Positions 26,066 to 28,242 of a stretch of 42,358 nucleotides of DNA are shown here, one piece after another. The translations under genes were made by a program, and so were the position numbers. The stretch is taken from sequence record PV357170.1; one strand, 5' to 3'. The notes below the pieces were generated by a model. The model had not been told where the DNA came from. It did not search any database and saw only the letters and a list, made by a program, of their open reading frames with translations. How positions within the stretch are numbered: position 1 is the stretch's first letter; each line of letters starts with the position of its first letter. This stretch comes from a phage.

Positions 26066-26536
26066 TTAAAACAATAAGTATTCCACTGTAGATGGAAGTT
26101 GGACACCTACTGCTACAGGCCTGTTTACTGTAATTACGCCAGCAGCGCAGGAAGCAGTATCGTTTACAGTAGCTGGATTATCTACCCATGGGCGAACGCT
26201 ATACGACTTAGTTGTATCTGCATTAGGTATAGTTAATGTTCCTGAAGTGGCCCCACTAGCAACAGCAAGTGCACCTAAGTCTACATTACCGGCAGAGTGT
26301 ACTAATACTCCGGCAGGACTAAGGCTTACAACAGTAACCCCAGAACCAATATCAGCAGGTAATGAGTAAGCACGCTGTGTCACTTTGTCATAGATGACTT
26401 TGTAACCAGCAAGCAGAGCACCCACTGAGAAGTAAACAACCTCTGATTGCTTAACTCCGAAGTGTCGAGCCACTGCTTGTTTATTAGTTAAGATTCCCGT
26501 TGAACCTTTACCATCTTGTGAGAACATTTCGTTCAT
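26066..26536 (-). CDS. hypothetical late protein (156 aa), Gly/Ala/Val/Thr-rich, encoded after the tailspike
   Basis: GAGG RBS upstream of the ATG at 26536; bracketed by a hairpin upstream and a terminator downstream; beta-rich composition resembles fibre or receptor-binding accessory proteins. Confidence 0.5.
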   Translation of the reverse strand: MNEMFSQDGKGSTGILTNKQAVARHFGVKQSEVVYFSVGALLAGYKVIYDKVTQRAYSLPADIGSGVTVVSLSPAGVLVHSAGNVDLGALAVASGATSGTLTIPNADTTKSYSVRPWVDNPATVNDTASCAAGVITVNRPVAVGVQLPSTVEYLLF

Positions 26537-26562
26537 ATAAACCTCATTGTTTTTCTAGGAAA

Positions 26563-26578
26563 CCCCGCCGAAGCGGGG
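26563..26578 (-). other. GC hairpin with UUCG loop between tailspike and the following ORF
   Basis: ccccgc-cgaa-gcgggg inverted repeat; on the minus strand followed by only UUU, so more likely an RNA-processing or stability element than a full terminator. Confidence 0.45.
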
Positions 26579-26586
26579 CTTTGCTA

Positions 26587-28242
26587 TTATACAAGCCTTG
26601 TGACACTATAAGCGAATGCACTCGCTATGCCAGCGCCGCTGACAGTGTTCCTCAATGTAACCCTGAATCGGGTTGTGCTGAAATATTCAACATCACAAGC
26701 CACGGAGTCACCCGCCGATATTGGCGTTATCTGTACCACATACCCATCAAGATATGTAGATAATTCATGAGAAAAAACTACATCATATACCCCCGTAGCT
26801 ACTACGTTTACTGATGAAACACCAGGCGCAATTCCTATGCCACCCGCGGCACTAATCCTTCCAGAACGAGGAATACTTCCAGCAGAGACAGAAGTATTCT
26901 TGCTGGTTTGCTCCGTGAATGTGCAGCCAATGTCGATTACTTCACAATTAGCGCCAGTAACCCAGAACGGTCGCGTGCTGCTTGGGGCATAAGAACCCGC
27001 GCTCTGGAATGTCGTACCATTGAGAATTACGGTTACTTTACCCCCGCCAGAACTTGTAATATTTAAGTTGTTTATGGTGTAAGCCGTATTACTAACACGA
27101 TGGAAGCCGCCGCCGTTAATAATTACGGTTACTGGGCGCGTTCCCGTGTTATCAATGGCAAGGTCAGAACCACCGGCATTACCCTCGAAATATGGGTTGT
27201 TAAGCACCAAAGCACATGATCCATTAAGACCGTTCACGGCAATCTGCATACCGCCAGTTCCAGCATTACCTTGCGTGCCGTTACCCTCACAGGTAAGGCT
27301 GTTGATGGTAGTCCCTGCACCCCATCTGTCGCCAAGAATACCCCATTGTGTATTCTGGCTTGCCGTTAATCTGTTGACCGTAATTGCATTAAGTTCTGAC
27401 ACATCATCATAATTAACCGCTCGCCACCCAATACGATTCGCCTGCAGGTACACATTATCCAGTTCCGACGTTAAAACGCCATCTGTTCGTAAACCTTCCC
27501 CGTTGGTATGTCCGTAAGATACTATGTTCTCTAACTTAGTATATGCTTTACTGGATACAACAAGACCATAAGACGATCCCGAACCTTTAAGCGTAATGTT
27601 CCCCAGATAATCATATGCGTGTACACGTTGTGTCGCCCCAACGGTATCTCCTAGCATCTTCAAGTTAAAATCAGCAACCTGACAATTAAAGATGGTTTCT
27701 GCCATGTTCTCGCCTTCGTAATGAGCGCGAACACCAGGAGAGCCTATAAACGAAGCATCATAATTGCCATAATCGAGGGTAAGTGCTGAGGATACATCAT
27801 ACACTCCCTGCTTTATTTTTAGCGTACCACCAAGATGCCATTTGGTAAGAGGGTCCTGGTATATTGAGTTATTAATATCATCCAAAGCCTCTTGCACATT
27901 ACTACCGTCAGTTGTCCCAATTAAAGAGGCACCTCTGCCGACGTCTGTGCTTGAGAGGTCCGATCTCAAACTTGCATCGCCAACACTCACCCATGCGCCT
28001 GAACCAACACCGCCAGAAGTTTCTGGGGTTGAGGCAGCAGGAACGGTTTTAGGGAATGTGGCATCCCACGTATAACACTGACCACCGGCAATATGCCAAA
28101 CAGCATCAGTTTTACTGTTTGCAGTAGCACCCTCTTCAAAGCTACCATCAACAAGTGTTAACCCTGCCTCTACAAGACTACGACGCCACTGTTCACGGTC
28201 ATTATTCTTGCTCGCATTGTAAATTAAATTTGTAAGTGCCAT
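26587..28242 (-). CDS. tailspike with right-handed beta-helix (pectate-lyase-like) fold, probable polysaccharide depolymerase
   Basis: 551 aa, Gly/Asn/Thr/Ser-rich with repetitive beta-strand-like segments (…NGTQGNAGTGGMQIAVNGLNGS…ITSSGGGKVTVILNGTTF…); no T7 gp17-like N-terminal adaptor domain; encoded after the lysis genes. Confidence 0.7.
   Translation of the reverse strand: MALTNLIYNASKNNDREQWRRSLVEAGLTLVDGSFEEGATANSKTDAVWHIAGGQCYTWDATFPKTVPAASTPETSGGVGSGAWVSVGDASLRSDLSSTDVGRGASLIGTTDGSNVQEALDDINNSIYQDPLTKWHLGGTLKIKQGVYDVSSALTLDYGNYDASFIGSPGVRAHYEGENMAETIFNCQVADFNLKMLGDTVGATQRVHAYDYLGNITLKGSGSSYGLVVSSKAYTKLENIVSYGHTNGEGLRTDGVLTSELDNVYLQANRIGWRAVNYDDVSELNAITVNRLTASQNTQWGILGDRWGAGTTINSLTCEGNGTQGNAGTGGMQIAVNGLNGSCALVLNNPYFEGNAGGSDLAIDNTGTRPVTVIINGGGFHRVSNTAYTINNLNITSSGGGKVTVILNGTTFQSAGSYAPSSTRPFWVTGANCEVIDIGCTFTEQTSKNTSVSAGSIPRSGRISAAGGIGIAPGVSSVNVVATGVYDVVFSHELSTYLDGYVVQITPISAGDSVACDVEYFSTTRFRVTLRNTVSGAGIASAFAYSVTRLV

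Follow-up and report, generated by a model that had tools for sequence, protein, structure and literature searches.

A probable mosaic O-antigen tailspike and a tailspike-gene remnant at the end of the late genes of a KP34-like podophage

The end of the late gene cluster

In phage sequence record PV357170.1, the full 42,358 nucleotides (nt) of which are referred to here as the window, the late genes end with the gene for a 551-amino-acid (aa) tailspike and a 156-aa open reading frame (ORF) behind it, and a 329-aa tail adaptor is encoded upstream of both. Analysis of this locus points to a tailspike put together by module exchange between phages, with the 156-aa ORF as a by-product. The window is that of a KP34-like podophage (Drulisvirus, T7-supergroup). 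Its nearest genome is Shigella phage SFN6B (KY684082; Autographiviridae, Slopekvirinae, Drulisvirus), with which the structural and lysis half shares 93.8% nt identity over 89% of 16 kb; with Drulisviruses of E. coli and Klebsiella, the identity of the same half is 89–93%. The host is most likely S. flexneri or an E. coli with a similar O-antigen.

All three ORFs were found at the positions given by the initial annotation and, like every gene in this part of the window, they lie on the minus strand (Table 1). From the stop codon of the adaptor gene to the start of the tailspike gene, which is downstream, there are 3,987 nt and seven ORFs. The tailspike was also correctly described as lying at the very end of the late operon: no ORF other than the 156-aa ORF separates it from a terminator-like hairpin, which is predicted to end the late transcription unit. 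Beyond this hairpin follow some 1.4 kb without long ORFs, aligning to the left end of the SFN6B record. The arrangement as a whole, with a short adaptor, seven intervening ORFs, the tailspike last and then the terminator, is the KP34-type split of anchor and enzyme that had been proposed. In KP34 group A, the gene for the enzymatic receptor-binding protein (RBP) lies five to eight genes beyond the anchor gene (maturases, hypotheticals and lysis genes) and is the last in order (PMC6872550).

Table 1. Features of the tailspike locus, followed by neighbouring late genes; positions are those of the window.
Feature	Position	Strand	Remarks
Tailspike, 551 aa	26587..28242	-	last full gene of the late cluster; start overlaps the endolysin stop (ATGA at 28242)
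Putative Drulisvirus docking module, tailspike aa 1-95	27958..28242	-	conserved; MALTNLI peptide, helices, Tail_spike_N; ends ...SVGDASLR
Predicted neck, right-handed parallel beta-helix and C-terminal beta domain, tailspike aa 96-551	26587..27957	-	Sf11 gp13/Sf101/SfX-type
Putative left recombination interval	27980..28016	-	SFN6B-type to Sf11-type inside a three-way shared stretch coding TPETSGGVGSGAWVSVGD; three-way DNA alignment
UUCG-tetraloop GC-rich hairpin CCCCGCTTCGGCGGGG	26563..26578	-	just past the tailspike stop; -17.2 kcal/mol, z -2.7
9-nt direct repeat CAAAGCCCC	26575..26583 (first copy); 26056..26064 (second copy)	-	copies bracket hairpin, spacer and remnant
Intergenic spacer of G7C-like phages	26537..26562	-	ribosome-binding site (RBS) GAGG 5 nt before ATG
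156-aa ORF, putative tailspike gene without beta-helix (remnant)	26066..26536	-	
Remnant aa 1-92	26261..26536	-	G7C gp63.1/CBA120 TSP1-type N-terminal docking domain
Remnant aa 93-156 and stop	26066..26260	-	Sf6-type tailspike C-terminal domain; Pfam Tailspike_C
8-nt microhomology CTGTTGCT	26258..26265	-	at the joint of the N- and C-terminal domains
Terminator-like hairpin	26026..26063	-	poly-C loop, T-run; native Drulisvirus; called at 26052..26037; conserved in sibling metagenomic contig L006 and in SFN6B
Tail adaptor or "truncated first RBP", 329 aa	32229..33218	-	T7 gp17-type domain and putative coiled/branching C-terminal part; no enzymatic domain
Small terminase, 100 aa	between adaptor and tailspike genes	-	
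Large terminase, 618 aa	between adaptor and tailspike genes	-	
Two ORFs, 125 and 93 aa	between adaptor and tailspike genes	-	no assigned function
Rz-like spanin, 134 aa	29081..29485	-	PHROG match, E = 4e-50
Holin, 83 aa	28837..29088	-	
Lysozyme-type endolysin, 203 aa	28242..28853	-	

Modules, junctions and the parentage of the 156-aa ORF

The N-terminal part of the tailspike is native to this group of phages. A conserved anchor peptide, as had been suspected, stands at its very start, reading MALTNLI against the MALxxLV docking peptide with which the enzymatic RBP of KP34 group A begins (Latka et al. 2019, PMC6872550). Tail_spike_N (PF18668), at aa 32–89, is the sole Pfam domain in the 551-aa protein. 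Compared with SFN6B, the N-terminal module is 98% identical at the nt level, with 92 of 100 aa identical. Residues 1–95 recur nearly unchanged in at least 35 tailspikes of 392–768 aa, the sequences of which diverge just past ...SVGDASLR. Conservation thus extends past the published heptapeptide to the whole of aa 1–95, which has the appearance of a docking module.

The partner of this module would be the adaptor, in which Pfam PF03906 (Phage_T7_tail) covered aa 14–143 (E = 1.6e-17), with no other significant Pfam match. The initial annotation had credited the 329-aa protein with this T7 gp17-like N-terminal domain and nothing else; the domain is present, but it is followed by about 186 more residues that are highly similar to solved fibre/adaptor chains. 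Over the whole chain the adaptor matched PDB 23sh_r, “tail fiber gp9” (solved, 307 aa; E = 4e-163), and aa 1–141 matched HRP29 Gp44 (8es4_G; E = 4e-74). Since only positions 8–346 of the 781-position tail-fibre profile phrog_2710 could be aligned, the adaptor is best described as a truncated first RBP. Among solved structures, T4 gp10, CBA120 TSP2/4 and gp66 gave no match to the adaptor at E ≤ 1, and BLASTP against a G7C gp66-like protein gave a non-significant E of about 1. The KP34 anchor, of 307 aa, has its T7 domain at aa 14–142, and a T4gp10-like fragment at aa 186–242, found by HHpred, was proposed as the tailspike docking site (PMC6872550). Phage engineering in KP32, K11 and KP34 showed both the branching domain and the docking peptide to be required (PMC13352976). 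By analogy with the KP34 and HRP29 work, the window would encode a KP34 group-A two-piece system, in which adaptor trimers bind the tail through their T7 gp17-type N-domain and the 551-aa tailspike docks in the virion, non-covalently, on the C-terminal part of the adaptor via its own N-terminal module.

Past the docking module the affiliation of the DNA changes. From the endolysin gene through tailspike nt 268 (28900..27975) the window is 98.2% identical to SFN6B at the nt level, and from 28056 to 26561 it is about 85% identical to Sf11; the two stretches overlap at the shared end of the Tail_spike_N domain. The 598-aa tailspike of SFN6B itself is a true Sf6-type endorhamnosidase homologue, matching the Sf6 tailspike over aa 100–596 (E = 8e-105). 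The tailspike of the window is 84% identical to Sf11 gp13 over aa 27–551 and 88% identical over aa 95–551, and matched both 9occ_G (Sf11 gp13; E = 1.5e-289) and phrog_17420 (E = 2e-221). With the tail protein of Sf101, a P22-like S. flexneri phage, the body shares 75% identity. High-identity carriers of the body in the phage collection were limited to Sf11, Sf101 and an SfX fragment, and prophage copies were found in E. coli and S. flexneri. A large protein database search returned the same body on at least five kinds of N-terminus. It follows the KP34-type module in P0039 and the Sf11-type helix in a 585-aa protein; prophages of E. coli and S. flexneri encode it behind the P22 head-binding domain (570 aa); in P0041 and P0047 it is fused directly to T7 gp17, and in P0050, which lies in a G7C-like gene order, it has a G7C gp63.1-type N-domain. 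The earlier suggestion that the tailspike is an exchangeable cassette is borne out, the recombination junctions being directly visible.

The 3′ limit of the Sf11-like DNA could be placed as closely. The tailspike stop codon, TAA, is followed by TAG and by a hairpin with a UUCG loop, which is the same context as in Sf11, and in the alignment this hairpin marks the change from an Sf11-type to a G7C-type flank. Hairpins of the form CCCC(G/T)CTTCGG(C/A)GGGG were seen at tailspike gene boundaries in the window (26563..26578) and at L002 5478–5493, L004 4959–4974 and L078 4959–4974 and 6849–6864, that is in the window phage, Sf11 and G7C-like phages, with compensatory changes in the stem; in the G7C-like contigs there is one on both sides of the tailspike gene. 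As a specific signature of cassette boundaries the hairpin was rejected, for the 18-nt motif is generic (at least 120 viral contigs) and a gp63.1-type N-domain was found at 0 of 120 loci checked. It is the extended homology of the flanks that is meaningful, not the hairpin motif alone.

Exchange does not seem to have been confined to the ends of the body. The sibling metagenomic contig L006 encodes a 551-aa tailspike with 81% aa identity to that of the window; over the first 400 nt the two genes are 96–100% identical, and identity then falls to 54–89% in the central beta-helix (26587..27842 against L006 1608–2863). Over nt 501–1100, the tailspike gene of the window is 81–92% identical to Sf11 and Sf101. 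This pattern would indicate exchange or allelic replacement inside the body as well, possibly tied to O-antigen serotype.

The 156-aa ORF was found to consist of the two ends of a tailspike gene. It had been described as Gly/Ala-rich, and is instead rich in Val and Ala (V 14.7, A 11.5, S 9.6, G 9.6%). Its N-terminal domain matched 4qnl_A (G7C gp63.1; E = 3e-49) and 4oj5_A (CBA120 TSP1; E = 1e-42), aa 1–92 being up to 96% identical to G7C-like phages (phage ST4). The spacer upstream of it is 91–92% identical to that upstream of the gp63.1-position tailspike genes of ST4 and Moonfish, and the same G7C-type spacer lies upstream of P0050 in L078. At the other end, Pfam Tailspike_C (PF21519) was recognized on aa 90–154 (E = 2.9e-12), with domain positions 7–70 of 72 present; aa 92–156 are 88% identical to the last 65 residues (534–598) of the SFN6B tailspike, and the C-terminal part also matched the Sf6 tailspike protein (TSP; 2vbk 449–513, E = 1.4e-7). 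The profile phrog_28781 is split across the locus, its positions 25–151 matching tailspike aa 1–110 and its positions 578–644 of 644 matching the remnant. In an AF2 model of the 156-aa ORF, aa 21–80 of the N-domain reached a pLDDT of about 75–86, and the C-terminal part, for which few aligned sequences were available, about 33.

Both halves are carried by one protein, the 666-aa tailspike of the G7C-like phage Moonfish, at 93% identity for its aa 1–92 and 88% for its aa 602–666. The sites in Moonfish that correspond to the joint are 1,521 nt (507 codons) apart. The full 8-mer CTGTTGCT precedes the C-terminal domain in Moonfish and in SFN6B, and a related CTGTTG ends the Moonfish N-domain. From these alignments, the 156-aa ORF appears to be a tailspike gene from which the Tail_spike_N domain and the beta-helix are missing, equivalent to the Moonfish tailspike less 507 codons. 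In the Moonfish record (PQ613263) the tailspike gene, of 2,001 nt, crosses the origin of the circular record (L005 5001–6027 plus L082 1–974); only the last 936 nt are annotated there (gp1, “tailspike protein”), and the first 1,027 nt, at the record end, are without a feature. A fusion of tailspike and remnant by read-through or frameshifting was also considered, and is ruled out by the TAA, the in-frame TAG and the different frame of the remnant.

These junctions suggest the following history. An SFN6B-like ancestor would have carried an Sf6-type endorhamnosidase body in this slot, and homologous recombination in the conserved end of Tail_spike_N (about 27980–28016) would have put an Sf11 gp13/Sf101/SfX-type body in its place, the stop codon and hairpin arriving with the incoming DNA. 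Codons 93–601 would have been lost, by deletion or by a joint at the 8-nt repeat, from a Moonfish/Sf6-type tailspike gene that came from a G7C-like phage (Schitoviridae), so that its gp63.1-type docking domain now continues in frame into the Sf6-type C-terminal domain. Taken as a whole, we consider it probable that the tailspike is a clearly mosaic O-antigen tailspike that arose by module exchange, with the remnant ORF as a by-product.

How the remnant came to lie behind the new tailspike can be told in two ways. A whole Moonfish-type gene may have arrived there and then lost its middle between the repeats. Otherwise, a single double crossover may have introduced the Sf11-type body, the stop, the hairpin, the spacer and 92 codons of a neighbouring donor gene, all joined to resident SFN6B-type C-terminal codons; the C-terminal 65 codons are proposed, under this route, to be a fossil of the displaced resident gene. 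One event suffices for the crossover. It would also fit the 92% identity to SFN6B of the remnant C-terminal piece together with its downstream flank, the mostly SFN6B-like informative sites from about 26150 onward, the Drulisvirus backbone past the stop, and the ends of phrog_28781 sitting in tailspike and remnant. However, the five informative sites directly 3′ of the joint are all Moonfish-like, not SFN6B-like (farther 3′, six are SFN6B-like and three Moonfish-like), and one gene, that of the Moonfish tailspike, already has both halves and the repeat. A search for a donor in which a gp63.1-type gene directly follows an Sf11-type body found none; the G7C-like contigs carry the body in the gp63.1-position gene itself (P0050), and another protein, P0090, lies in a P22-like/serotype-converting context. 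We regard the single crossover as possible but doubtful. Acquisition of a whole gene followed by deletion seems somewhat more likely, being modestly favoured by the five sites next to the joint, with the right crossover homologous and inside the C-terminal domain.

Target of the tailspike and fate of the remnant

The composition of the 551-aa protein (G 12.5, T 9.8, S 9.8, N 7.3%) agrees with its description as Gly/Asn/Thr/Ser-rich. Of the beta-helix with a pectate-lyase-like signature that the initial annotation had assigned to it, the pectin-lyase-like right-handed parallel beta-helix fold was confirmed, and no Pfam pectate-lyase match was obtained at E ≤ 0.1. Unlike it, the SFN6B tailspike matches PF12708 in Pfam. 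When solved structures were searched with the 551-aa protein, only N-terminal domains were matched, 9OCC holding the full Sf11 gp13 sequence; comparison with Sf6 TSP gave generic fold likeness only (Foldseek E = 1e-7, 10–11% identity). The body appears to lie outside the sequence family of the Sf6 tailspike endorhamnosidases.

Evidence on the target comes from the relatives of the body. Sf11 gp13 is a virion tailspike present in 18 copies, and Sf11 requires complete lipopolysaccharide (LPS), since it does not plate on waaC, waaG or waaL mutants (PMC12724387). Across 47 homologues in the alignment of the body, two acidic residues, E319 and D360, are invariant, and these are candidate catalytic residues. 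The backbone of the S. flexneri O-antigen, Rha-Rha-Rha-GlcNAc, is without uronic acid, which beta-elimination lyases need, and for this reason a hydrolase is likelier than a lyase. The genetics of Sf11 and the occurrence of relatives of the body in S. flexneri phages and prophages point to a S. flexneri-type O-antigen as the target. The body would bind the O-antigen of LPS and, given the O-antigen chemistry, probably cleave it as a glycoside hydrolase, so that the virion reaches the outer membrane.

The 551-aa protein had earlier been read as a pectate-lyase-like capsule depolymerase, which would make it, whether lyase or hydrolase, an enzyme like KP34 gp57 on a phage of capsulated hosts. Such an assignment could draw on the genome backbone, which is that of the capsule-targeting Klebsiella Drulisviruses, and on the label “pectate lyase superfamily” which some metagenomic homologues carry from their sources. 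The family of the body speaks otherwise: all of its close relatives are from S. flexneri phages or E. coli/Shigella prophages, the closest, Sf11 gp13, being on an LPS-requiring phage. In SFN6B, the Shigella phage whose genome is closest to the window, the slot is occupied by an O-antigen endorhamnosidase of the Sf6 type. With the Pfam pectate-lyase match absent and no uronic acid in the S. flexneri O-antigen for a lyase to act on, a capsule depolymerase is improbable.

As for the remnant, its position ahead of the native terminator and its good RBS (GAGG) make transcription and translation probable. The hairpin between it and the tailspike has only TTT after it on the coding strand, and terminator prediction for the minus strand did not pick it up; it would be a weak terminator at best. 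The product, then, is probably made. With neither a receptor-binding body nor a recognizable docking partner, the remnant is most likely a dispensable leftover, and we infer that it is without function. A second receptor-binding component, as the initial annotation had suggested, is difficult to reconcile with what the ORF encodes, since its docking domain is followed by only 64 residues of Sf6-type C-terminal sequence, and Tail_spike_N and a body are missing. Structure search and BLASTP recognized no gp66-type partner of the remnant N-domain in the window genome.

Several points weigh against a history of module exchange that leaves an O-antigen tailspike and a functionless remnant. For Sf11 gp13, residues 4–59 are all that was modelled experimentally (9OCC, with the full sequence in the entry), and its activity is assumed. 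No sequence similarity of the body to Sf6 endorhamnosidase or to any solved beta-helix was found with a single sequence or a 47-sequence profile (E ≤ 1); enzymatic chemistry is not readable from the beta-helix fold, and enzymology of this body type is absent from the literature. The T4gp10-like docking fragment was not confirmed by sequence in the adaptor of the window, so the docking step rests on the literature. The order of events remains two-way, between a single replacement with a hybrid joint and, modestly favoured, whole-gene gain with internal deletion. For the two halves of the remnant, dN/dS values of 0.46 and 0.05 come from only 15–24 differences and, beside 0.45 for the neighbouring endolysin, are uninformative. 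The remnant also retains an intact start codon, an RBS, an open frame upstream of a real terminator and two nearly whole domains, which is also what one would expect of a small protein with a function. Other phages, furthermore, have conserved stand-alone proteins of about 103 aa that contain the same N-domain.

The last two of these points speak for a functional small virion or assembly protein, that is a beta-helix-less stub trimer which would, through its gp63.1-type N-domain, occupy or cap the adaptor site, or for an ORF kept as a landing pad for new tailspike bodies. The N-domain is predicted to be folded, Tailspike_C is nearly complete, and the conserved N-domain proteins of about 103 aa occur inside tail-fibre clusters of phages of about 150 kb; Latka et al. 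proposed that truncated RBPs may persist as docking sites (PMC6872550). In the stand-alone proteins (102–103 aa; P0001, P0003, P0006, P0008, P0016, P0018), the gp63.1-type N-domain is followed by a short conserved tail, ...RDLKSNENAL, and one cluster holds 66 member sequences. L008, a 152-kb metagenomic phage contig, has such an N-domain-only gene at 6001–6312 in a tail-fibre/tailspike cluster, where it directly follows a GDSL-lipase tailspike and another instance of the UUCG hairpin. These N-domain-only proteins may be functional adaptors or recurrent leftovers.

The two-domain form, however, was found nowhere else. The 5.8 billion clusters searched contained no protein of this size with both halves; the best coverage there was 75%, all via the N-domain. 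Among 1.84 billion representative proteins there was again none with both halves; 130 matched the N-domain at E ≤ 1e-10, nearly all via the N-terminus, and the sole strong C-terminal match was a 720-aa tailspike. A protein-database search with the last 69 residues gave no candidates. The exact 26-nt junction sequence had no match in the viral contig collection, and a degenerate version of it gave 69 matches in metagenome contigs, all due to chance, with 0 homologous by tblastn. L006 runs straight from the tailspike stop to the native terminator; since it has this type of tailspike and lacks the remnant, the remnant is not needed by a phage with such a tailspike. The extra 519 nt of the window relative to L006 are flanked by the CAAAGCCCC repeats, and L006 could descend from an arrangement like that of the window through a deletion, or could be the product of a cleaner recombination. 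A functional stub must also do without a recognizable gp66-type partner, and the ORF is fully explained by deletion or recombination at the 8-nt repeat; we think a function for it unlikely. The same low confidence attaches to a broader idea, in which the 156-aa ORF and the proteins of about 103 aa form a functional class of beta-helix-less stubs that retain the gp63.1-type docking domain. Such stubs could cap empty sites on branched adaptors or adjust how far these are occupied by tailspikes, and the DNA that encodes them could act as a homology platform. Were this idea true, the stub coding sequence would let a phage capture tailspike bodies from unrelated morphotypes.

A chaperone required to fold the 551-aa tailspike, also raised in the initial annotation, has in its favour only the position directly downstream, where chaperone genes often lie; with no match to Caudo_TAP, Peptidase_S74 or similar domains in Pfam (E ≤ 0.1) or PHROGs, every residue accounted for by the two tailspike end-domains, and no such neighbour beside the homologous tailspikes of Sf11, Sf101, L006 and the prophages, it is scarcely credible.

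Some further observations were made on the surrounding genes. The lysis block has the order spanin, holin, endolysin. The 134-aa ORF, in which a lipobox (LTGCSA) at the N-terminus is combined with a membrane helix at the C-terminus, resembles a single-component spanin, and the hydrophobic N-terminus of the endolysin could be a signal-anchor. The C-run in the loop of the terminator (26040..26056) numbers 11 in the window and 10 in L006, and is much longer in SFN6B; the record of that phage was cut open within the poly-C run, 22 nt past the tailspike stop, so that its “genome end” probably reflects a break in the assembly rather than a physical terminus. In SFN6B, an HNH endonuclease gene (L001 1184–1672) sits between the internal core protein and adaptor genes; in the window these two genes abut (33218/33220), leaving no space for it. 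The 1,420-aa internal virion protein (33220..37482, minus strand) contains a GNAT acetyltransferase-like stretch (...LRGKGVGASMYKAL...), and the annotation of its homologue in SFN6B lists an N-acyltransferase superfamily domain.

Comparison with known systems

The locus can be read as a record of tailspike specificity moving between unrelated phages with a common host. The points of exchange can be placed within tens of bases, and the leftover gene shows a contribution of DNA from a G7C-like phage. For phage engineering, ...SVGDASLR at the end of Tail_spike_N appears confirmed as a natural splice point for the re-targeting of Drulisvirus scaffolds, and the scaffold, known with Klebsiella capsule as its target, is extended here to Shigella/E. 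coli O-antigen. In annotation work, small ORFs behind tailspikes should be checked for truncated tailspike ends before they are named “chaperone” or “second RBP”.

Known systems account for each part. As in KP34 group A (PMC6872550), there is a short adaptor with the T7 gp17 N-domain (aa 14–142/143) and no enzyme domain, and the tailspike comes last, past the terminase and lysis genes, with a MALxxL(V/I) docking peptide and a beta-helix body. The window differs from KP34 in that its body is of the S. flexneri type and not a Klebsiella capsule depolymerase (KP34 gp57), its host is probably Shigella or E. coli, and an extra remnant follows. SFN6B shares the N-terminal module of the tailspike (98% nt) and the same terminator past the tailspike region, whereas its tailspike is the 598-aa Sf6-type endorhamnosidase, no ORF lies downstream, and an HNH gene precedes the adaptor. 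Sf11 gp13 (PDB 9OCC; PMC12724387) has the same body, stop-codon context and hairpin after the stop; it attaches to the distal tail protein of a siphovirus via its own N-terminal helices (aa 4–59), while the body in the window rides on a KP34-type module. The closest solved Shigella counterpart is HRP29 gp44/gp52 (PDB 8ES4), likewise from a T7-like podophage with a short gp17-like adaptor carrying a separate tailspike, but the HRP29 tailspike is Sf6-like and its adaptor, of 260 aa, diverges past the N-domain.

For the remnant, the Moonfish tailspike (G7C-like Schitoviridae) matches in both ends, in the upstream spacer and in the type of RBS. By comparison, the remnant lacks 507 codons (Tail_spike_N and beta-helix), and the gp66-type protein that is the docking mate in G7C-like phages is unrecognizable in the window. 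A further likeness is the truncated second RBP of KP-Rio/2015 (61 aa; Latka et al. 2019, PMC6872550), also a short, non-enzymatic RBP leftover at a KP34-like tailspike locus; that leftover is a 3′-truncated copy of the resident RBP, whereas the remnant in the window would be an internally deleted foreign (G7C-like) gene behind an intact tailspike. All parts are thus of known kinds, with no new mechanism, and what is new here is their particular combination and the unusual legibility of the junctions.

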